From assembly GCA_965227535.1 (NCBI GenBank), contig OZ245761.1, positions 4,733,366 through 4,797,365 on the forward strand: 64,000 nucleotides of DNA, read 5' to 3'. The notes under the pieces are model-generated. The model worked only from the letters and a program-made list of their open reading frames with translations, did no database searches and was not told the origin of the DNA. The position numbers and the translations under genes are program-made. Origin of the DNA: Micropepsaceae bacterium (GTDB taxonomy: Bacteria; Pseudomonadota; Alphaproteobacteria; Micropepsales; Micropepsaceae). Below are positions 32,187 through 42,833 of this stretch, piece after piece (within the stretch, counting starts at the first letter, position 1; every line of letters starts with the position of its first letter).

Positions 32187-33809
32187 TCAGTTCAGCGGCG
32201 TCGAGAAAGTCAACAGCAGCGCGTGCCCGCCGCCTTTTTCGCGGCCCGCCGCATCGCGCTCGCTGCCGTTGAGATCGTAGCGATACTCGAGTTTCAGCTT
32301 CGCTTCGTCGCGGCTCAGTTCCTGTTGCGCGAAGGTCGACAGGTCGACGCTCAACTGCAGCTGACGCGTTTTCGAGCGCGCCGCCAGATTGTCGTCGATG
32401 ATTTGCGATTGCGCATCGGCTGCACCGAGCCGAAGCTCGACCGTCGGCCCGCCTTCCGGCGCGTAGGCGACCGAAACATGCGGCGCAATCTCGCTGTCGT
32501 TGTTGCGAATGCCCAGACTCGTATCGTCTGTCTCGATCATCGAGAGCCCGGCGCCGAACTTCCAGTTGCCGCGGCGGATCTTGTGAGAGATATCCACGAA
32601 CCGGTCACGCGACCGCGCCAGCGGAATGCTGTCCTCGCCGTCCGGCGTATAGATATCGGTTTTGATGCGGCGTTCCCAAACGCTGGCCGTCGTCTCGCCG
32701 AAATTCGTCTCCCACGTCAGCGCGATGTTGGCGGTGCTGACGCGATCGCGCGGTCCAGGCAAAAGCTCCGCGCGCACAATGTCGCCGCGCTCGAACGCCG
32801 CGAACACCGACGTCGGCAGGAACGGCCGGATCGGATCGATCGCATCGGCGACCGCCGGCGGAATGACGTCGGCGACCATGACGTCGGCGGTCACGCCGGC
32901 GTATTGGCTGCGCTTCAACCACTGACCGCCCTGGGTCAGATTGAACTCCATGCCTTCCTTGCGATAGACCGAAATCTCCGACTGCGCATAGCCGACCGTC
33001 ACGCCCTGCCGTTTCAAATTCTCGGCGCGCGTCACGAAATCCTGATAGTCGACCTTGACGCTCGCCTCGCCGAACTCAAGCGACGACGACATCGTCGACC
33101 ACGACCCCGGCAGGACCAAACGGCCGGTCGGCAATTCGCTGATCGCCGTCGCAAAACCTTCCGTCGTCTCGCCCATCTCGCCGTTGACGAGAAGGCGCAA
33201 ATTCTCGCTATCGATCACTTTCGCCGCAAAACGCGTGCGCCGCGACGTGTCGCTGAGGTGCATCGGCCTGTCGGCCTCACGCAGCTGCGGGTCACGGAAA
33301 TCGCGCGTGTCGGTTTCGTCGATCGTCTTGGCAAAGTCGGATGTGACGGCGACCCGGCCGTTGAACATCGTGGCGTCGACGCCGACGCTTTCTGTGGCGA
33401 CGCCGCCGTTCGAGAAGTTCGCGCCGTTCGCCAGCCGGTCGACCTTCACGCCGACCGCAGGCTCAAGATCATACGACCCGCTACGCAGCTTCAAAGTGAC
33501 GGGAGCGTCATACGGCGTGTTTTCCGCGAAGGGCAGGGGAACGTCCTCGGCCTTGTCCGTATCGTCGCTCGTATCCAGCGACAGCAGATTGACCGTCTGC
33601 TGCGTGAACACCCTCGCCCGCAGTTTGTTAACTTGCTCCGTGGCCGCCGTCTTCTCGATCCCTAAAGAGGTCGCGAGTGTCGTGGGCATCAGCCAGAAAG
33701 GTTGTATCGGTTCGGCACTCGCGACGTCCGCGCAGACGACCGCACTGCCGGCCAAAAGAAGGGTCCGCAAACCCCTCGGCGCAATCTTCGATTTCGAACG
33801 GTGTTCCAT
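32187..33809 (-). CDS. Secreted protein, probably an outer-membrane beta-barrel, of unknown function
   Basis: Signal peptide ...LLLAGSAVVCADVASAEP and 540 aa rich in alternating beta-strand-like segments. No family recognised. Confidence 0.6.
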   Translation of the reverse strand: MEHRSKSKIAPRGLRTLLLAGSAVVCADVASAEPIQPFWLMPTTLATSLGIEKTAATEQVNKLRARVFTQQTVNLLSLDTSDDTDKAEDVPLPFAENTPYDAPVTLKLRSGSYDLEPAVGVKVDRLANGANFSNGGVATESVGVDATMFNGRVAVTSDFAKTIDETDTRDFRDPQLREADRPMHLSDTSRRTRFAAKVIDSENLRLLVNGEMGETTEGFATAISELPTGRLVLPGSWSTMSSSLEFGEASVKVDYQDFVTRAENLKRQGVTVGYAQSEISVYRKEGMEFNLTQGGQWLKRSQYAGVTADVMVADVIPPAVADAIDPIRPFLPTSVFAAFERGDIVRAELLPGPRDRVSTANIALTWETNFGETTASVWERRIKTDIYTPDGEDSIPLARSRDRFVDISHKIRRGNWKFGAGLSMIETDDTSLGIRNNDSEIAPHVSVAYAPEGGPTVELRLGAADAQSQIIDDNLAARSKTRQLQLSVDLSTFAQQELSRDEAKLKLEYRYDLNGSERDAAGREKGGGHALLLTFSTPLN

Positions 33810-34588: not shown

Positions 34589-35308
34589 ATGGAAAAATAC
34601 GCACAGCTCGGCGAGACACTGGCCCGGATCACGGCAGCGTGGTCCCTGGCGTCGCTATGGGCGACCGTTAAGGACTACACCGGCCGGTTCGGCTACACAC
34701 ATATGGTCGTGGTGGACGCCGCCCGCATTGTCGCCGGTATCCGCGATGCGGTTCTCTACAGCGACGCGCCGCCCGACCTGCTTAGCGCAATCGACCGCGA
34801 ACTCGTTTACGAAGACCACCCTCTCGTCCGCCACGCGCTCAACTCGCAGTCGCCCTTTCTGATCTCCGATCTGACCAACAGCCCCATGCACCAGGGCGAG
34901 CGCTGGACGGAGTTGCTTGCCGACGTGGTCAAGAACGGTGAGGGTCTGGTCATTCCGGTCTGGCGCAATGATGAGCCGCTTGCGGGCTTCAACCTCGCCG
35001 GCGAAAAGCCCGACACCTCCGGCCTGACCCGCGCCCTACTTCAGGTGGTCGGCCACGCCGCCATCGAGCGCGCGCTGGAGCTGCGCCAAGGCAAGGGCAC
35101 CTCGGCCGGCCTGACCCTGACCGTGCGCGAGACCCAGTGCCTGCGCTACGTTGCCATCGGCCATTCCGACGTCGAGATCGGCAAAATGCTGGGCATCAGC
35201 CCCCGCACCGTCCGCTTCCACGTCGACAGCGCCAAGACCAAATTGGGCGTCTCGACCAGGGTTCAGGCGATCGCCAAGGCCTTGCGCGAGCGCATTATCG
35301 CCGTCTAG
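34589..35308 (+). CDS. LuxR-family regulator (autoinducer-binding-like N-domain plus GerE/LuxR HTH); a LuxR solo
   Basis: C-terminus LTVRETQCLRYVAIGHSDVEIGKMLGISPRTVRFHVDSAKTKLGVSTRVQAIAKAL. N-terminal ~170 aa with YEDHPLVRHALNSQSPFLI, resembling the Autoind_bind core. No luxI-type gene is present in the window. Confidence 0.85.
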   Translation: MEKYAQLGETLARITAAWSLASLWATVKDYTGRFGYTHMVVVDAARIVAGIRDAVLYSDAPPDLLSAIDRELVYEDHPLVRHALNSQSPFLISDLTNSPMHQGERWTELLADVVKNGEGLVIPVWRNDEPLAGFNLAGEKPDTSGLTRALLQVVGHAAIERALELRQGKGTSAGLTLTVRETQCLRYVAIGHSDVEIGKMLGISPRTVRFHVDSAKTKLGVSTRVQAIAKALRERIIAV

Positions 35309-35418: not shown

Positions 35419-35748
35419 GTGCGCCGTTGGCTCTGGCCATACGCGATCTTGGCGGTCCTATTGTTGATGCTCGGGATGACCGCGCTGGGCACGATGTTGG
35501 CTGGCGACGGGGCCGATCGGGCAGCCTCGCAATTCGCGGTCGCTGACGCCGCCGTCATCGAGCCGATGAACCGCTTTCTGATCTCGATGCTGGAGATGAT
35601 CGCGCCATTCGAACTGCCGTCCTGGTTCAAGCAGATCTACGCCGTCCTCGTGATGATCGCGCTCGTCGGGATCACGCTTTCCCTTGGCGTGGGATTGCTC
35701 TTGCTGCCCGTTTTCTATGCGCTCTACCGCGGCAGAGATGCCGACTAG
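35419..35748 (+). CDS. Small hypothetical membrane protein (2-3 TM)
   Basis: I prefer the GTG at 35419 (GGGGTGGGGA upstream); the track start is 35380. TM segments WLWPYAILAVLLLMLGMTALGTML and IYAVLVMIALVGITLSLGVGLLLLPVFYAL. Its TAG stop overlaps the stop of the convergent repressor gene within CTAG. Confidence 0.45.
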   Translation: MRRWLWPYAILAVLLLMLGMTALGTMLAGDGADRAASQFAVADAAVIEPMNRFLISMLEMIAPFELPSWFKQIYAVLVMIALVGITLSLGVGLLLLPVFYALYRGRDAD

Positions 35749-36440
35749 CCGAGAGAGTGCCCGATCCAAATGATCCGCCCCAGCGCTTCCAACGCCGCCG
35801 GATCCAAATCCTCGTAAGGCTTATAGCGTGCGTTGTCCGAACTGATGGTCACCCGCCGTGTCGCCGGATGCATCGTCACCCGCCGCACCATCAGCGTATC
35901 GTCGAGCCGCAGCACATAGATCCCCTCGCGCCGCAGGTTCGCCTGCGCGGTGTCGACCAGCGCCTGATCGCCGTTCGACAACGTCGGCTCCATCGCATCG
36001 CCCGACATCTGGACGACGGCAAGCTGAGACACGGGCGTCGCCGTCAAAGCCTTGAGCCACAATCCGCGGAACATGGTGAAGCTCACCGCATTATCGATGT
36101 CGCCCAACGGATCGCGCCCCGCGCCCGCCTTCATGTCGAACACCGGGACGCGCTCATAGTTCGCGACCTCGATCCCGGCCTCCATCGCATCGGATCGCAC
36201 CTGCTTGCGCGCCCGTGCCGGCTCTCGCATGCGGCCCTCGCCGGTCTCAAGCCAGAGCGAGTCCTGTCCCAACGCCCGCGCGAACTTGGCGGAGTGCTTG
36301 GTCCCCTTGGCGCGCCCGGACTCGAGTTCCATGACCGCCTGCTGGCTGATGCCCACGGCCTTGGCGAGGGCAACTTGCGTGAGGCCCAGAACCTCGCGCG
36401 CCTTCTTGATCCGCGTGCCCACGCCAGACATCGAACGCAT
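35745..36440 (-). CDS. XRE-HTH / S24-peptidase-like (CI/LexA-type) repressor with substituted catalytic dyad positions
   Basis: N-terminus IKKAREVLGLTQVALAKAVGISQQAVMELESG (HTH_XRE). C-terminus VVQMSGDAMEPTLSNGDQALVD...YVLRLDDTLMVRRV follows the S24 pattern, but GDSM reads GDAM and the Lys position reads RR. Confidence 0.85.
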   Translation of the reverse strand: MRSMSGVGTRIKKAREVLGLTQVALAKAVGISQQAVMELESGRAKGTKHSAKFARALGQDSLWLETGEGRMREPARARKQVRSDAMEAGIEVANYERVPVFDMKAGAGRDPLGDIDNAVSFTMFRGLWLKALTATPVSQLAVVQMSGDAMEPTLSNGDQALVDTAQANLRREGIYVLRLDDTLMVRRVTMHPATRRVTISSDNARYKPYEDLDPAALEALGRIIWIGHSLG

Positions 36441-36595: not shown

Positions 36596-37468
36596 TTGGG
36601 GCTTTTTGGCCGGACAGATGGGTGGGGCGTAAGTGCCGTGACGTGTGACTCCGGCAGTATTCTCGGCTGCACGATCGCAAGCTTCCCGTTGATCATCGGG
36701 GGATTGGCGGCGCTCGTGCTGCTGTTGCTCGGCATCCGCTTCGCGCTCAGCATGCGCGACAACTGGCGCCGCCCACCCGAAGCACGGCCCGAGCCAAAGC
36801 CCGCACGCCAAGTCACCCCCGGCAGTCCGCTACACCCGCCACCGGCAAACGCAACGCCGGAGAAGCCGAAGGCCCCAGCGCCGCGCCCACCGGCAAAACC
36901 GACGCCGCTGCAACTCAGCCTGTCTGATCCGCCCGATCTGTCGCTCGCCGACTTCCAGGGCGACAACAACGTCCAGGGCGACTTCGGCGAACTCATGACT
37001 GCCGTCGTCCTCGGTTCGCAAGGCTGGAAGCAACTGCCCTCGAAGCTCCAGGGCCGCCGCGGCATCGATGGATTGTTCGTGCGCGAAGTACGCGGTGGCG
37101 GCGGCTATGAATGCCTTGCGACGGAAACGAAGACGAACAGCGGCGGCTACGAACCGAAATCGATGGCGGACGAAAAACTCGCCGCCGACATCGCCGCGCT
37201 CTACGAAGTCGGCGCGCTAACCAAATCGAACGCCGACGAACTCCTGCGCGCGCTCGATCAAGGCGCCTCCTTCTTCCGCAAGGAACTCTGGCGTCACGAC
37301 CTGTCGAACGGCATGACGACGATCAACGAGCTCGGCCGCAAGGGCGAGAAGGGCCGCTCCGTCACGCGCTCCAACGCGCGCCTGATGGCAGCACTCCACA
37401 TGTCCCTGGAACGCTTCGACCGCCGCTCCGTCTACCTCGGCCGCCCACCCGTCGACGACGAAGCCTAG
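36596..37468 (+). CDS. Membrane-anchored protein with a proline-rich linker and a PD-(D/E)xK-like putative nuclease domain
   Basis: TM helix FPLIIGGLAALVLLLLGIRFAL and a ~60-aa Pro-rich linker. Then GDFGELMTAVVLGSQGW...GRRGIDGLFVRE...YECLATETKT, giving an E132...D158...E177-x-K179 arrangement. TTG start at 36596; an alternative GTG lies at 36638. Confidence 0.6.
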   Translation: MGLFGRTDGWGVSAVTCDSGSILGCTIASFPLIIGGLAALVLLLLGIRFALSMRDNWRRPPEARPEPKPARQVTPGSPLHPPPANATPEKPKAPAPRPPAKPTPLQLSLSDPPDLSLADFQGDNNVQGDFGELMTAVVLGSQGWKQLPSKLQGRRGIDGLFVREVRGGGGYECLATETKTNSGGYEPKSMADEKLAADIAALYEVGALTKSNADELLRALDQGASFFRKELWRHDLSNGMTTINELGRKGEKGRSVTRSNARLMAALHMSLERFDRRSVYLGRPPVDDEA

Positions 37469-40400
37469 CGCGCGGCGATAGAGCCGATGACGTCGAAGTC
37501 GCCGGCCATCACGGCGTCGAACTTTCCCGACCGCCACGCCTTCTTCCCGTCGCGCACCAGCGGCGAAGCGCCGCCGCGATACCGCCGCACGACCGTGTTC
37601 GAAGTCCCCGCGCGCTCAATCGTCGCGCGCAACGTCTTCGCCGCGCTCGACGCCGGTAGGTCGCCGAGCGGCGCGGCGGCCACGCGCACGCGCGCAATCA
37701 CCCGCGAACTCTCATCGTCGTCGTTGGCTTCGAGGACGTGCAGGCCAACCTCGTCGGTAAGCAGGCGAAACGCGCCGAATCCTGACACCGTCAGCACGAC
37801 GTCATTGCCCATCGCGTAGTCGTCGATCTGCATCCCGCGCTTGGCGGCCCACCCACGATACATCTTCAGAACCTGCGCACACCAAGCCCGCGCCGCGTGC
37901 GCATCGGCCGCCCCTTCAAGCGCAGGCTCGACGGAAAGCACTGCCTCGATCGGCGCATCGCTCAAAGCATCCTCGACGCCCATCTGGGTCACGAATATCT
38001 GCCGCGCCAACCGCCCCATGACTTCGCTCGAATGCCCGCGCGCATCGCGTGACTTGTCCAGCCTTTCGCGCAAAGACTCGACCGTCTGCATCGCGGCCTT
38101 CACGCGATCCATCAATGCATAGCGCGCCAGCACGCCATGCCGGTCGGCGCGCGACCAGAAAGCAGCGTCCGCCATTTGCCCACCGAGCTGCGCCGCCAAG
38201 CTCGTCCACGCTTCGCTATTGAGCCGCACTTTGAGCGCGCTGTACTCGCTCTCCAACACCGACCGTTCCGCAGCCGATCCCTGGCTGTTGTGCACGATCT
38301 CAGCCAGCGACACGCCGCCCGCAGGCACGACCGCCGCCGCGTCCGACGTCTCCGCATCCGGATCGACGAACTCGACCTGAATGGCCTTGCCATCGCTGCG
38401 CACGAACAGAAACTGATCGCCTTCCGGAAACCGGTGCTCGACAATCGTGGCGGCGAGTGGCGCCAACAAATACTGATCGATCGCACGCTTCAATGGCCGC
38501 GCACCCAATTCCGGTGAGAATCCGCGATCAAGCAAAAACTCCAGCGCCGAGTTCTCCCACTCGACCGCCCAGTCGCGATTGCGCAAGCCGCGCCGTTCCA
38601 GAACGTTGCGCAGTTCCTTTTGCAAGATCTGCCGCATCAAATCGCGTCGCAGCGGCTGGAACACGATCACCTTGTCCAGCCGGTTCACGAACTCCGGCCG
38701 GAACGCCTGACCGATCGCCTGCATGATCTGATCCGACGAGAACGCCGCCGCCTTCGCGCCGAAGCCAAGCGCCGGCGCCTGATGCGACGTGGCCCCCAAA
38801 TTCGACGTCAGAATGATGATGCAATGCCGGAAGTCGGCGACGTTCCCGCCGCCATCGCTCAGCCGCCCATCGTCGAACACCTGAAGGAACAAGTCCCACA
38901 CATTGCCGTGCGCCTTCTCGAACTCGTCCAGTAACACGACGGAGAACGGCTGCTTGCGCACGCGATTGATCAAAGACTCCGTCTGCCCGCCGCCCGGATC
39001 GCCGATAATCTTGTTCAACGACTCCGGTGTCTTGAACTCGCTCATATCGAGCCGGATCAACCGCTCATCCGACCCGAACAAAAACTCGGCTAGCGTCTTC
39101 GCAAGCTCCGTCTTGCCCGTGCCCGTCGGCCCAGCAAATAGGAACACACCGATCGGCTTCGTATGATCGGTTAGCCCGGCCTTCAGCATCGCAATCCGGT
39201 CAACGACCGATCCCACTGCTTCGGCCTGACCCATCACACGCGCGTCGAAGAACTGCCGCACCTCGTTAAGCTCGACCCGCTCGTTCCCGTCCAGAATCGC
39301 AACCGGCAACCCCGTCACCTGCGAGAGGGTCAGCAGAATATCGCCCGGCGCGATCGCCTTCGCGCCTTCACCGACGCAGCGGTTGAACGTCAGCTTGATG
39401 AGGTCGAGCACGCCACCCGGCAATTGCGATGTGCCCAAATACTGCCGTGCCAGCTGCATTGCTTGCGATCCCGTTTCGGGATCGAAGGTGACCTTCGACT
39501 CCTTCGTAAGCGCCTGCAGATAAATCTCGACGAACTTCGCCGCGCGCTCTTCCGGCATCGGCACAATTGGCGCGCCCTCGAACACGCCCTTCAGGTTCGG
39601 CCGCAACTGAAGAAGCTGCGTCAGCTTCGTCGGCGTCGCCTCACTGATGATGATCAGCCGCCCCGCCATGATCGCTGGTAACACCTGATCCAAAATACTC
39701 GCCGTCTGCCCGTGATGCGTCCCGCTCACCGCGATCTGCAGAATATCCGGCACGTACCAAATGGTGCGCTTATCGGCGGTCAGTTCGGCCACCATCCGAC
39801 GCACGCGTTCTTCAAGCTGCCCGATATAGGACTGCCCCGCCTGCACCTCAGGCCCGCCAGCCTCAAAGATCGTCCAGCCCTTCGCGATCAACCGGTCGCC
39901 GAGCAAACGCAAGAACGCGCTCTTGCCGACCTTCGCGTCGCCACGCACGATCAACGACCGCGCCGGAGAACGCACCAACGCGTTCTCCGCCGAACCGAGC
40001 AGATCCTTCCACTCCTCGGGCTCGATCAACAAATCATCCGACGTCGACCAAAACCGCCCGAACGCCTCCAGGAAAGCGCGATCAAGCTTCGCCGCGCGCG
40101 CGGTCTTCAAGTCCGCGATCAACGCCGTCGCAAACGGATGATCGAGGCTCTTTAAAAACCCTTCGATGTCCGCCGGATCGGACGCATAGGACGCCGTCGC
40201 CGCCGGTCCGAACTTCGGCTTGTCGCCCAACTTCTCGACGCGCGTGAAGTAAGCGCGGAAGAGGCCCGGAATAATCAGATTGTCCTGCCACCACGAATCC
40301 GCCGCCGCCGCCGGCCCGCCAGGCAACGGCCGCTGCTTCAGCGAACTTAGATACTCCAGCGCGTAATGCATCGCCCACGGCCGCAGTCGCCCGAAGAACG

Positions 40401-40806
40401 CGAGCACGTCTTTCGACGCCTGTTGTCCGTCCGCGCGCTCCGTCAGCGCAGCAAGCGCCGCGCACGACATCGTCCAGTTCGCACCCAGCGCATACTGGGT
40501 CACCGTCTCAAGCGGCACGTTCGTATCCGCAAGCAGCGCGACCGCTTCGACAAACTCGCTGCGATCGGAAAGCTCGCGCGGATGCGCCGTCGCGTCCCCG
40601 AAAGCCTCAAGCGGGACACTGAACCGATGCAGTTTCGCGCTCAGCGCCTCGGCGCCGGCAACCGGAGCTGTTGCTTCCAGGGCGTCAGGTGTGGGCGCGG
40701 GCGTCGGGTCCGGCGCGCCGCTCTTCGCACCCCGCGTCTCGAGGATTCCGTAACCAACGGCGAGACCCGCGGCAAACCCAACGAGCAGGAAGAGAAGAAT
40801 GGTCAT
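37465..40806 (-). CDS. Membrane-anchored Clp/Hsp100-type double AAA+ ATPase with a C-terminal class-I release-factor-like domain lacking GGQ
   Basis: 1113 aa in total.
- N-terminal TM: MTILLFLLVGFAAGLAVGYGIL.
- Helical region: aa ~50-270.
- D1: Walker A GDAKVGKS (aa 289-296), but the Walker B region reads IWYVPD.
- D2: canonical GPTGTGKT (aa 559-566), VVLLDEFEKAH, IIILTSN, FRPEFVNRLD, GARPLKR (ClpB_D2-small).
- aa ~850-1113: RF blocks FWSRADRH, AWCAQVLKMYRGWAAKRG, SGFGAFRLLTDEVGLHVL, VRRYRGG...AVMAGDFD. Confidence 0.9.
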   Translation of the reverse strand: MTILLFLLVGFAAGLAVGYGILETRGAKSGAPDPTPAPTPDALEATAPVAGAEALSAKLHRFSVPLEAFGDATAHPRELSDRSEFVEAVALLADTNVPLETVTQYALGANWTMSCAALAALTERADGQQASKDVLAFFGRLRPWAMHYALEYLSSLKQRPLPGGPAAAADSWWQDNLIIPGLFRAYFTRVEKLGDKPKFGPAATASYASDPADIEGFLKSLDHPFATALIADLKTARAAKLDRAFLEAFGRFWSTSDDLLIEPEEWKDLLGSAENALVRSPARSLIVRGDAKVGKSAFLRLLGDRLIAKGWTIFEAGGPEVQAGQSYIGQLEERVRRMVAELTADKRTIWYVPDILQIAVSGTHHGQTASILDQVLPAIMAGRLIIISEATPTKLTQLLQLRPNLKGVFEGAPIVPMPEERAAKFVEIYLQALTKESKVTFDPETGSQAMQLARQYLGTSQLPGGVLDLIKLTFNRCVGEGAKAIAPGDILLTLSQVTGLPVAILDGNERVELNEVRQFFDARVMGQAEAVGSVVDRIAMLKAGLTDHTKPIGVFLFAGPTGTGKTELAKTLAEFLFGSDERLIRLDMSEFKTPESLNKIIGDPGGGQTESLINRVRKQPFSVVLLDEFEKAHGNVWDLFLQVFDDGRLSDGGGNVADFRHCIIILTSNLGATSHQAPALGFGAKAAAFSSDQIMQAIGQAFRPEFVNRLDKVIVFQPLRRDLMRQILQKELRNVLERRGLRNRDWAVEWENSALEFLLDRGFSPELGARPLKRAIDQYLLAPLAATIVEHRFPEGDQFLFVRSDGKAIQVEFVDPDAETSDAAAVVPAGGVSLAEIVHNSQGSAAERSVLESEYSALKVRLNSEAWTSLAAQLGGQMADAAFWSRADRHGVLARYALMDRVKAAMQTVESLRERLDKSRDARGHSSEVMGRLARQIFVTQMGVEDALSDAPIEAVLSVEPALEGAADAHAARAWCAQVLKMYRGWAAKRGMQIDDYAMGNDVVLTVSGFGAFRLLTDEVGLHVLEANDDDESSRVIARVRVAAAPLGDLPASSAAKTLRATIERAGTSNTVVRRYRGGASPLVRDGKKAWRSGKFDAVMAGDFDVIGSIAAR

Positions 40807-40815
40807 GGGACAAGG

Positions 40816-41664
40816 TTATGCCGCTTGCGGCCGCCCGCCCGCAACGCTGGTGCGGAACATTTCGCGCCGCTGCCCGTGATAATCGTTGAGCGCGTTGTGC
40901 TGCGTCGCCCGGTTGTCCCAGATGGTTAGCGTACCTTTCGCCCACCGCACCCGGCAGGTGAAATTCTCGTTCGTCTGGTGGCGATAGATGTGCTGCAGCA
41001 ACGCCTGGCTCTCAGGCACGCTCCACCCCTCGAACCGCTTCGTGTAGACCGGATTGACGTAAAGCGCGGCCCGGCCGCTGTCCGGATGCCGGATCACAGC
41101 CGGATGCACGAACTCTTGAAACGCCTCGTCCGACGGCACGATCGCCGTCGACATCTTGTCCTTCACCCGGTCGAGATACCCGCCGGTGCCGTAAGCCGCG
41201 CCCGCCGAATGCACCGCGCGCAAATGCTTCAACGTCGCCTTCAGTCCCTCCGACAGCGTCTCATAGGCGAGATACTGGTTCTGAAACACCGTGTCCCCGC
41301 CATAGTCCGGCACGTCATGTGCGTAGAGACACGTAAAACTCGGCGGCGCCTCGAGATACGAAAGGTCCGAATGCCAAGCGTTGGCGAAGTTCAACTTGTC
41401 CTCGCGCTCCTTCAAAACGCGAATGACGTAGGGCCGGTCGGGCAGCGGCTTCACGAACGGCGTCACCGCGCGTCCGCCAAGCTCATCCGTCACCCGCTCC
41501 AGATCGTCGAGCGACATCGACTGATCCGGCACCGTCACGACCAGATGCTCCGTCAACGCCGCGCGCAACACCGCAACGTCGCTCGCGCCAAGCGGCCGCG
41601 ATAGATCAAGCCCACGCACCTCCGCGCCAAGCGCGCCTGCCAGCCGCGAAACCTTGACGGCCAT
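40816..41664 (-). CDS. TauD/TfdA-family Fe(II)/2-oxoglutarate-dependent dioxygenase
   Basis: Start reset to MAVKVSRLAGALGAEVRGLDLS; its ATG overlaps the upstream stop (TAATG). WHSDLSY (HxD motif), ...VHPAVIRHPDSGR..., WDNRATQH. Confidence 0.9.
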   Translation of the reverse strand: MAVKVSRLAGALGAEVRGLDLSRPLGASDVAVLRAALTEHLVVTVPDQSMSLDDLERVTDELGGRAVTPFVKPLPDRPYVIRVLKEREDKLNFANAWHSDLSYLEAPPSFTCLYAHDVPDYGGDTVFQNQYLAYETLSEGLKATLKHLRAVHSAGAAYGTGGYLDRVKDKMSTAIVPSDEAFQEFVHPAVIRHPDSGRAALYVNPVYTKRFEGWSVPESQALLQHIYRHQTNENFTCRVRWAKGTLTIWDNRATQHNALNDYHGQRREMFRTSVAGGRPQAA

Positions 41665-42833
41665 TACGGCGCCGGCTCCAGCTTCAGCACCCGCCCATCC
41701 GGATAATCCGTCGTCACATAGACATAGCCGTCCGGGCTGACTCGCACATCGCGAATGCGCTCGCCCAGCTTGGTCAGCAATTGCTCCTGACTGACGACGT
41801 GGCCGCGCTCGTCGAGATGCACGCGGCGCAAGTGCTTGAACGCCAGTGCACCGACCAGAAGGTCGCCGTTCCAAGCCGGAAACTTATCGCCGCGATAGAC
41901 GGCCAAACCCGACGGCGCAATCGATGGCGTCCAATAGACGACCGGCTGCTCCATCCCCGGCCGCTCCTTGAACGGCGAAACGAACGCACCCGTGTAATCG
42001 CGTCCATAGGTAATGACGGGCCAACCGTAGTTCTTGCCCGCTTCAATGATGTTCAACTCATCGCCGCCCTGAGGACCATGCTCCGTCTCAAACAGAATGC
42101 CGCGCTCACTGTCGAACACGAGACCCTGCTCATTGCGATGACCAAGCGAATAGATCTCCGGCCGCACGCCCTCGCGCCCGGTGAACGGGTTGTCTTGCGG
42201 AATCGTCCCATCGTCGTTCAAGCGAACGATCTTGCCGAGATGCGACCCAAGATTCTGCGCTTGCTCGCGATACTCAAACCCGTCGCCCACCAGAAGCGTG
42301 AACGTCCCATCCGGCAGAAACACCAGCCGGCCGCCATAGTGGTTGTTCGTATCCTTCGGCGGCTTCGCCTCGAAGATCACCTGCAGATCCTGCAGTGCGC
42401 CGCCGTCAAAACGAGCGCGCGCCACACGCGTCATGTTCGCAGTGTTCGTGCCATGCGCGTAGGTCAGATAGACAAGACTGTTCTCCGCAAACTTGGGATG
42501 CAGCACGATGTCGAAGAGCCCGGCCTGACTGCCCAGATGCACCGGCGGCACGCCCGTGATCGGCGCGGCGACCAACTGCCCGTCTTTGATCAACCGCAAT
42601 TGGCCCTTGCGCTCCGTGACCAGCATCGAGCCGTCTGGCAGGAACGCGATCGAATACGGATGATCGAGTCCCTTCGCGACTTCGGTCACCTTGTAGCCCG
42701 TCTCAACCACCTGCACCGGTCCCGGCGGCGGCGGAGGCGCGGGCGGCTCAGGCGGCGGCACATCGGCAAGCGCCATGCCGCCCGCCAGCGACGCGGCAAT
42801 CACGAACCCCGGAATCAACCGTGCGACAGTCAT
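41664..42833 (-). CDS. PQQ-dependent sugar (glucose/sorbosone) dehydrogenase, soluble beta-propeller type
   Basis: Start reset to MTVARLIPGFVIAASLAGGMALA (GAGGGGA RBS). LDHPYSIAFLPDGSMLVTERKGQLRLI, HYGGRLVFLPDG, GHRNEQGL, PSGLAVY. Confidence 0.9.
   Translation of the reverse strand: MTVARLIPGFVIAASLAGGMALADVPPPEPPAPPPPPGPVQVVETGYKVTEVAKGLDHPYSIAFLPDGSMLVTERKGQLRLIKDGQLVAAPITGVPPVHLGSQAGLFDIVLHPKFAENSLVYLTYAHGTNTANMTRVARARFDGGALQDLQVIFEAKPPKDTNNHYGGRLVFLPDGTFTLLVGDGFEYREQAQNLGSHLGKIVRLNDDGTIPQDNPFTGREGVRPEIYSLGHRNEQGLVFDSERGILFETEHGPQGGDELNIIEAGKNYGWPVITYGRDYTGAFVSPFKERPGMEQPVVYWTPSIAPSGLAVYRGDKFPAWNGDLLVGALAFKHLRRVHLDERGHVVSQEQLLTKLGERIRDVRVSPDGYVYVTTDYPDGRVLKLEPAP

Follow-up and report, generated by a model that had tools for sequence, protein, structure and literature searches.

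The stretch analysed here (the window) comprises 64,000 nucleotides of a Micropepsaceae bacterium (Alphaproteobacteria; NCBI GenBank assembly GCA_965227535.1, contig OZ245761.1, positions 4,733,366 to 4,797,365 of the forward strand). Its minus strand carries a gene, referred to below as Clp-RF, whose product joins a Clp-type AAA+ ATPase to a C-terminal module homologous to the bacterial class-I release factor (RF) RF2. The GC content at third codon positions (GC3) of this gene, 0.79, is coding-typical for a window with 63 % GC, and an exact look-up of the protein in the contig collection returned no entry. The gene and its features, in window coordinates and with the evidence for each in brackets, are as follows.

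37465-40806, minus strand: Clp-RF fusion gene, 1113 residues in an uninterrupted frame, stop codon at 37465-37467 (open reading frame list and translation)
40741-40803, minus strand: predicted N-terminal transmembrane anchor, residues 2-22, TILLFLLVGFAAGLAVGYGIL, followed by basic residues (hydropathy, homologues)
39952-40641, minus strand: all-alpha N-domain (HEAT/ARM-like solenoid) in place of Clp_N, residues 56-285 (profile search, AlphaFold2)
39352-39951, minus strand: D1 AAA+ module, residues 286-485 (alignment with ClpB/ClpA D1, NCBIfam ClpA, column counts)
38671-39159, minus strand: D2 AAA+ module, Pfam AAA_2 at residues 550-712 (Pfam, ClpB D2 alignment, conservation)
38974-39009, minus strand: D2 pore-loop remnant, residues 600-611, IIGDPGGGQTES (ClpB alignment, column counts, loop listing)
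38761-38769, minus strand: LGF tripeptide, residues 680-682 (alignment with the ClpA IGL loop, column counts)
38413-38652, minus strand: ClpB_D2-small domain with the sensor-2 motif GARPLKR, residues 719-798 (Pfam, E=4.4e-16)
37957-38307, minus strand: RF2-like domain 1, a helical bundle, residues ~834-950 (RF2 profile alignment, model helices, conservation)
37468-37956, minus strand: RF2-like domain 2/4 beta-sheet superdomain, residues 951-1113 (profile, AlphaFold2, Foldseek, conservation)
37609-37653, minus strand: short helix replacing RF domain 3, residues 1052-1066 (RF2 profile alignment, AlphaFold2)
37705-37728, minus strand: acidic variable loop ANDDDESS at the SPF position, residues 1027-1034 (hidden Markov model alignment to RF2)

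A poorly conserved linker of ~20 residues (~813-833) joins the AAA+ body to the N-terminus of RF-like domain 1. An earlier note on this DNA, made from the letters alone, had described a release-factor-like domain at 37468-38259, which corresponds to residues 850-1113 of the protein.

The C-terminal module is a true homologue of RF2, since the similarity found in both profile and structure searches lies far above chance. Pfam PCRF matches residues 874-1025 with 22.8 bits (E=8.9e-5) in a scan of the whole protein and with 26.7 bits (E=5.6e-6; gathering cut-off 24) in one of the C-terminus by itself, the NCBIfam prfB model matches the protein at E=1.4e-6, and a single-sequence phmmer search of the PDB returned B. 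subtilis RF2 (9fy1_8 and 6szs_z) at E=3e-5. With a profile built from 55 family members (A1), RF2 was recovered from the PDB at E=1.3e-12 and RF1 more weakly, at E=7e-4. This profile was aligned with RF2 residues 7-224 and 319-356, i.e. with domains 1, 2 and 4, leaving ~95 residues of domain 3 (225-318) uncovered, with 23 family positions in their place. When family members were scanned individually, PCRF was matched by 20 of 33 and RF-1 by none of the 33; the Clp-RF protein itself gave no match to the Pfam RF-1/GGQ domain even at E≤1. The AlphaFold2 model of residues 813-1113, with a mean predicted local distance difference test score (pLDDT) of 92.5 and a predicted template modelling score of 0.87, consists of a helical bundle (model H22-136) followed by a beta-sheet domain with the long helix 5, while a helix (H240-254, residues 1052-1066) stands between strands E223-232 and E260-265, at the site of domain 3. 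All 49 PDB structures matched by Foldseek at E≤1e-3 are RF1, RF2 or mtRF1/mtRF1a (best 1.1e-10). The module was most likely derived from a duplicate of prfB by secondary loss of domain 3, an origin suggested by its greater proximity to RF2 than to RF1, by the RF2-type FW motif in domain 1 (AAFWSRADR) and by its narrow phyletic range.

The elements with which a release factor reads stop codons and releases the peptide have disappeared from the module. Domain 3, with the GGQ loop and the switch loop, is wholly missing. The SPF tripeptide anticodon faces a gap and acidic residues in the hidden Markov model alignment (RF2 'rispfdssgrRht' versus 'eaee..edsasRvt'), and in the profile alignment the helix-5 GxxE tip (GGTE in RF2) faces variable residues and the decoding His of RRHTSF a variable hydrophobic residue; no column at these three sites is conserved across the family. 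The loss of the reading elements and of domain 3 means that the module can neither read stop codons nor hydrolyse peptidyl-tRNA in the manner of a release factor, and as both the RF-1 domain and the stop-codon-reading elements are lacking, the protein is not a release factor.

Much of what the earlier note had proposed for this part of the protein is thereby borne out. All four blocks in which it had seen a resemblance to release factors fall inside regions aligned to RF2, and the profile and structure comparisons that it had suggested recovered PCRF and RF2 but not RF-1 and, with Foldseek, class-I release factors only. The decoding-superdomain scaffold that it had described is retained, domain 1 included, and it was also right that the GGQ domain is missing, that the SPF/PxT position is not conserved, a variable acidic loop lying there instead, and that hydrolysis of the RF type is precluded, domain 3 being deleted.

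The remaining scaffold is, judged by its conservation, under strong purifying selection. At least 95 % conservation is observed at 58 of 259 module positions, 14 of which are Arg (24 %, compared with 10 % Arg in the sequence), an enrichment that is compatible with an RNA-binding surface. The conserved motifs of the 2/4 superdomain include W..MY..WA..R, SGFGA, E.GLH, VRRYR, PLVRD, WR.G and G.FD, and domain 1 is unusually constrained, with 18 positions at least 95 % conserved between residues 855 and 950. This constraint on domain 1, which suggests a new interface, is among the observations that speak for the main rival to the ribosome-targeting function proposed below, namely that the RF2 fold was exapted away from the ribosome and serves, without any contact with the A site, as a scaffold for binding a substrate, an adaptor or RNA, or for autoregulation of the AAA+ part (for example, by gating ClpP docking). 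The loss of all stop-codon-reading elements together with domain 3 and a gene context without translation-related genes point in the same direction. However, exaptation offers no obvious reason for the retention of domain 1, the whole 2/4 superdomain, the RF core motifs and many invariant arginines, and the known GGQ-less relatives of release factors are still A-site binders: both Dom34/Pelota, a catalytically inactive release-factor fold (PMC6514570), and Balon, a GGQ-less release-factor homologue (PMC10901736), bind the A site independently of mRNA. Exaptation is considered a serious possibility, although not the outcome to be expected.

The AAA+ body consists of two dissimilar rings. D2 is, on its motifs, an intact ATPase: Pfam AAA_2 matches at E=1.1e-43 and ClpB D2 at 7e-77, Walker A (GPTGTGKT), Walker B (LLDEFEKAH) and the Arg finger (FRPEFVNRLD) are all present, the catalytic motifs are invariant, and 159 of 302 positions show at least 95 % conservation. 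The ClpB pore loop GYVGYEEGG is deleted from it, and in its place stands a short loop of acidic or small residues that varies in both sequence and length across the family. GGQ tripeptides occur in the Clp-RF protein only in this loop (residue 606; 5 of 55 members) and at residue 875 (2 of 55 members). The former (38983-38991, minus strand, residues 606-608, within IIGDPGGGQTES) was considered as a relocated catalytic motif and rejected on account of its presence in only those five members; being confined to close relatives, it most likely reflects chance. Beyond the loop, 11 residues past the sensor-1 Asn, lies the tripeptide LGF, with L in 52, G in 55 and F in 55 of 55 members, in column-for-column register with the IGL loop of ClpA as grafted into the ClpB-ClpA chimera 5ofo_C. 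It is with this tripeptide that the unfoldases ClpA, ClpC and ClpX dock onto ClpP.

D1 shows the opposite arrangement. It is detected by a weak Pfam P-loop match (residues 278-349) and aligns with D1 of ClpA and ClpB. Its Walker A motif (G[ED]xxVGK[TS], residues 289-296) and its pore loop (AGQx[YW][IF]GQL, residues 323-331), which is canonical, are invariant, while the Walker-B-like motif (WY[IV]PD-I, residues 350-355) carries Ile at the Glu position in 50 of 55 members and the RR pair of ClpB is reduced to [RK]-[GSN]. By its motifs, D1 binds nucleotide but probably does not hydrolyse it. No counterpart of the M-domain (ClpB residues 396-531) was found, as only 14 residues separate the D1 and D2 alignments, and NCBIfam ClpA aligns contiguously with residues 289-789, whereas ClpB covers residues 487-808 only and ClpG matches partially.

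The N-terminal portion of the protein has also diverged from the usual Clp plan. The hydropathy of the anchor reaches a Kyte-Doolittle 19-residue maximum of 2.34, and as a similar hydrophobic helix followed by Arg or Lys is present in ~50 of 54 homologues, Clp-RF is probably anchored in the membrane by its N-terminus, with the body of the protein in the cytoplasm; an N-out/C-in topology is predicted. Over residues 1-277, no Pfam model, including Clp_N, matched at E≤1. The profile of the N-domain finds this domain in the present family only, always with the AAA part following it, and the AlphaFold2 model, for which database fragments were used, is all helical (pLDDT 85.8); Foldseek gave no significant match for it in the PDB (best E=0.2), with alpha-repeat (HEAT/ARM-like) proteins on top.

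By domain composition, Clp-RF belongs to the ClpA/ClpC branch of Clp/Hsp100 proteins, though not as a typical member: D2, D2-small and the putative ClpP loop are present, but it lacks Clp_N, catalysis in D1 and the pore loop of D2. With ClpA and ClpC, it shares two AAA+ modules, the lack of an M-domain, D2-small, a contiguous ClpA alignment over residues 277-799 and the register of LGF with IGL; it differs from them in the anchor, the novel alpha-solenoid that takes the place of Clp_N, the lost Walker-B Glu of D1, the deleted GYVG of D2 and a 280-residue C-terminal RF-like extension. ClpB/Hsp104 disaggregases are set apart by the coiled-coil M-domain in their D1. The 'unfoldase-type motor' of the earlier note stands as far as the Clp-type AAA+ assignment is concerned, but this description is too simple for a protein with a D1 devoid of the Walker-B Glu and an active D2 devoid of an aromatic pore loop. 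The traits of a ClpA/ClpC-type ClpP partner (no M-domain, LGF) and the membrane anchor are features that it had not described.

A motor without a pore loop in its D2 would also fit a tethering or hibernation factor that holds idle ribosomes at the membrane, with the dead RF2 module as a plug in their A site, while the AAA+ part serves oligomerization and ATP-dependent release, not proteolysis. A precedent for such a role is provided by Balon, which acts as a GGQ-less, mRNA-independent A-site hibernation factor (PMC10901736), and the conservation of the membrane anchor agrees with it. Nevertheless, it is difficult to see why LGF and the D1 pore loop should be invariant in a protein that neither handles substrates nor works with ClpP, and a crude scan upstream of the gene found no stress-promoter motif, which makes this explanation an unlikely one.

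The fusion is not peculiar to the window. A search of 185,579 GTDB species genomes with the C-terminal profile revealed relatives encoded at 214 loci in as many GTDB species. The full-length check covered the best 80 of these 214 loci together with four loci found earlier, and at 54 loci a single uninterrupted frame of 1022-1239 residues was found, aligned with the window protein from its residues ~5-55 to ~1107-1113. When 1.84 billion representative proteins were searched exhaustively with HMMER, the module was matched 1085 times at E≤1e-3 and 363 times at E≤1e-30; among the best 150 of the 1085 matches, it always forms the extreme C-terminus of a protein of ~1050-1230 residues or of a fragment, and no other architecture with the module occurs. 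The nearest relative, with 95 % identity over the whole protein in tblastn, is encoded by an unclassified alphaproteobacterial metagenome-assembled genome (MAG). Organism labels are almost all alphaproteobacterial (Micropepsaceae, Rhodomicrobium, Hyphomicrobium/Hyphomicrobiaceae, Xanthobacteraceae, Rhizomicrobium, Rhodoplanes, Hyphomonadaceae and Rhodobiaceae), and cultured carriers include Labrys okinawensis (WP_181161149.1, PRH87502.1) and Labrys sp. LIt4 (WP_209431813.1). In public databases, family members are named 'AAA family ATPase' or, at the Joint Genome Institute (JGI), 'ClpC', and nothing else. A few members are labelled Flavobacteriaceae or Bacteroidota (L012, L013 and L017; P0246), at loci with 63-64 % GC, which reflects either mis-binning or horizontal transfer beyond Alphaproteobacteria; P0246 has the same architecture with a still more degenerate D1 (GSGRT, Walker-B Asp gone).

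An artefact, in which a clp gene and a degraded prfB would have been joined by chimeric assembly or by a frameshift, was nevertheless suggested by several database homologues that consist of two gene calls, of ~500-750 and ~400-515 residues. A protein homologue search likewise gave only fragments of at most 526 residues, which pointed at first to a ~500-residue form or a conserved frameshift. The split sites, however, differ from one copy to another and are confined to long-read MAG assemblies, so that the frameshifts are attributable to sequencing errors, and a programmed frameshift or two-gene form was rejected on the differing positions in the long-read copies L001-L004. Frameshifted copies in long-read metagenome assemblies (MFD / ERZ250394xx) comprise L001-L004, L019, L021, L033-L035, L038, L047, L052, L058, L061, L064, L067, L076 and L082; at L066, two segments in the same frame are separated by a gap. 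Split 'ClpC' gene calls of this origin dominate protein databases and mask the full-length architecture. The artefact is refuted by the 54 other loci with the fusion in one frame, among them short-read assemblies and the RefSeq proteins of the Labrys isolates, and by the strong conservation of the RF-like module, and it is given practically no weight. The fusion of the RF-like domain to the C-terminus of a Clp-type AAA+ protein in a continuous frame, as read by the earlier note, is thus genuine, and the search that it had recommended for further Clp-RF fusions traced relatives to the 214 species, almost all of them Alphaproteobacteria. That it knew of no characterized protein with this architecture agrees with the literature searched, where neither a fusion of Clp with PCRF nor a bacterial RF lacking domain 3 was found to be described; neither is mentioned in a survey of RF evolution (PMC6514570). 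What is new is a conserved domain architecture built from two well-known families.

At the locus itself, a TauD-family dioxygenase gene (40807-41874, minus strand), preceded by a GSDH-type dehydrogenase gene, ends 9 nt upstream of the Clp-RF ATG on the same strand, and its proximity makes co-transcription of the two genes possible in this genome. This arrangement is confined to the window's own clade, where it was found at eight loci between L005 and L023, not at all of them. On the other side, a convergent membrane ORF (open reading frame) of 290 codons (36596-37468, plus strand; GC3 0.79) overlaps the Clp-RF stop codon by 4 nt; in its product, a hydrophobic segment at the N-terminus and a Pro-rich linker are combined with a conserved C-terminal region of ~170 residues, without a Pfam match, and it adjoins Clp-RF in the same clade only (L005, L006, L011-L014). 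A LexA/CI-like repressor gene with helix-turn-helix and S24 peptidase domains (35745-36440, minus strand), syntenic in the clade that has the 290-residue ORF, and a LuxR-type regulator with an autoinducer-binding domain (34589-35308, plus strand) both lie just downstream of the locus, and an uncharacterized ORF of 540 residues (32187-33809, minus strand; GC3 0.80), also without a Pfam match, recurs with 50-96 % identity at ten loci (L005, L006, L011-L017, L040).

The synteny of these neighbours (TauD, the 290- and 540-residue ORFs and the S24 repressor) extends over the window's clade only. De novo clustering of neighbouring ORFs at ~85 loci identified no conserved partner gene, the best cluster being an aldehyde dehydrogenase at 22 of ~85 loci, and the neighbours across loci are metabolic or housekeeping genes that follow clade synteny. 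Sigma-32, sigma-70, LexA, CtrA or EcfG-type motifs were found upstream at 0 of 55 loci in the crude scan, promoter and terminator scans of the window yielded nothing above shuffled expectation, and no tRNA or Rfam elements were detected in the window. Given the lack of shared neighbours, of a shared promoter motif and of RNA genes, together with PADLOC matches that are generic, Clp-RF behaves as a stand-alone chromosomal gene that belongs neither to an operon nor to a defence island.

The PADLOC matches, to DolB and PDC-M37B, raise the question of a role in conflict with phages, in which the RF-like module would be a decoy or sensor for phage factors that target termination and would trigger an AAA+ effector. 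An S24/HTH repressor near the gene in the window and a TIR_2 protein adjoining one homologue could be taken in the same sense. Both PADLOC matches are, however, limited to the generic AAA_2 core (residues 511-676), a partner gene is conserved nowhere, and the neighbourhoods are those of clade-syntenic metabolic and housekeeping genes, not of defence islands; an anti-phage role appears very improbable. The TIR_2-domain membrane protein (L001, 9525-10637, minus strand) is encoded convergently and directly downstream of the homologue at this one locus.

The function tentatively proposed for Clp-RF is that of a membrane-anchored double-ring AAA+ machine of the ClpA/ClpC type that docks to ClpP and uses its dead RF2 module as a ribosome-targeting domain. 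In this proposal, a hexamer on the cytoplasmic face of the inner membrane would be docked to ClpP through its LGF loops, and six flexibly linked RF2-derived modules would act as targeting domains that occupy the same place on the ribosome as RF2, namely the factor-binding site and the A site of the 30S subunit. Such binding would be independent of a stop codon and would not lead to peptide release. The motor and the peptidase would thereby be brought to particular ribosomes, for example those stalled or idle at the membrane, where a ribosome-bound protein or nascent chain could be extracted, degraded or remodelled, with D2 hydrolysis as the drive and the D1 pore loops as the grip on the ribosome-associated polypeptide. 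In structures of ribosome-bound release factors, the N-terminus of domain 1 points out of the ribosome; as the linker to the AAA+ body is attached at this end, entry of the module into the A site is sterically conceivable.

Several observations weigh against ribosome targeting coupled to ClpP. The codon-reading residues of RF2 are gone, so that contact with the decoding centre is not to be assumed, and the orientation of domain 1 relative to domain 2/4 in the AlphaFold model is slightly closer to that of free RF2 (1gqe, TM 0.49) than to those of ribosome-bound RFs (TM 0.37-0.42). Hydrolysis and a canonical pore loop never occur in the same ring, as D1 has the grip without the Walker-B Glu and D2 the ATPase without the pore loop, which renders processive threading into ClpP uncertain. 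Positional alignment is the sole basis for regarding LGF as a putative ClpP-docking loop, and six C-terminal modules of 280 residues on the D2 face might compete with ClpP docking. Finally, the gene context contains no conserved neighbour tied to translation or ClpP.

The module shares with RF2 (PrfB; PCRF and RF-1) domain 1, domain 2/4, the fold and the core motifs FW, W..MY..W, G.H, R.Y and G.[LF]D. It differs in being fused behind an AAA+ protein of ~810 residues, whereas RF2 is free-standing, and in its loss of domain 3 with the GGQ and switch loops, the SPF loop, the helix-5 GxxE tip and the decoding His. ArfB/ICT1 and PrfH are also partial derivatives of class-I release factors that work outside normal termination; they keep the GGQ domain, which is lost here, whereas the regions retained here are partly or entirely missing from them. 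FtsH resembles the proposed machine in having an AAA+ ring that an N-terminal anchor holds on the cytoplasmic side of the membrane and that is linked to proteolysis, as proposed here for Clp-RF, although FtsH has a single AAA module with a fused metalloprotease and nothing resembling the RF module.

The logic suggested for Clp-RF is also that of Pelota-ABCE1 and Balon, where a release-factor fold without the catalytic Gln occupies the A site independently of stop codons and has a nucleoside triphosphatase (NTPase) as a partner (PMC6514570, PMC10901736). Those proteins, however, have the unrelated aeRF1 fold, keep their middle domain and work as separate polypeptides with GTPase or ABC ATPase partners, whereas here the fold is that of bacterial RFs, the catalytic domain has been excised and a Clp hexamer would be covalently attached. 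In eukaryotic ribosome quality control, Vms1/ANKZF1 and Cdc48/p97 offer a further parallel, the physical coupling of a protein resembling release factors to an AAA+ unfoldase with two rings (PMC6514570); unlike the Clp-RF module, Vms1 is catalytically active towards peptidyl-tRNA, its fold is that of aeRF1, and its binding to Cdc48 is non-covalent, by way of a VIM motif. By analogy, Clp-RF may be viewed at most as a covalent bacterial analogue of Pelota-ABCE1 or Vms1-Cdc48.

According to Burroughs and Aravind, the RF hydrolase domain is inserted into the domain for codon recognition (PMC6514570). As the family described here shows, the decoding scaffold of bacterial RFs is able to exist, and to be under selection, without that hydrolase domain. 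The family also challenges the usual picture of Clp motors, in that the gripping ring appears not to hydrolyse ATP and the hydrolysing ring has no grip, while a candidate ClpP-docking loop is nevertheless there. The architecture will be surprising to specialists in translation or AAA+ proteases and is experimentally accessible, the functional claim being at present inferred; with Labrys strains in culture among the carriers, the hypothesis can be put to a direct test.

Ribosome rescue and quality control in bacteria are thought to be based on tmRNA, ArfA/ArfB/ArfT, RqcH and soluble proteases, and we know of no bacterial AAA+ machine that is directly targeted to ribosomes by a release-factor-like domain. 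In its fullest form, which must be considered doubtful, the proposal would add to these an unrecognized ribosome-directed AAA+ protease in several alphaproteobacterial orders, a membrane-anchored, ClpP-docking hexamer whose six dead RF2 modules would recognize ribosomes that are stalled or idle, by their A site or factor-binding site. Such a protease would be a covalent counterpart, with a bacterial fold, of Pelota-ABCE1 or Vms1-Cdc48 and the first example known of the bacterial RF decoding scaffold being employed in the absence of the hydrolase domain. If the link to the ribosome is true, the Clp-RF family would represent a new branch of bacterial co-translational quality control at the membrane.

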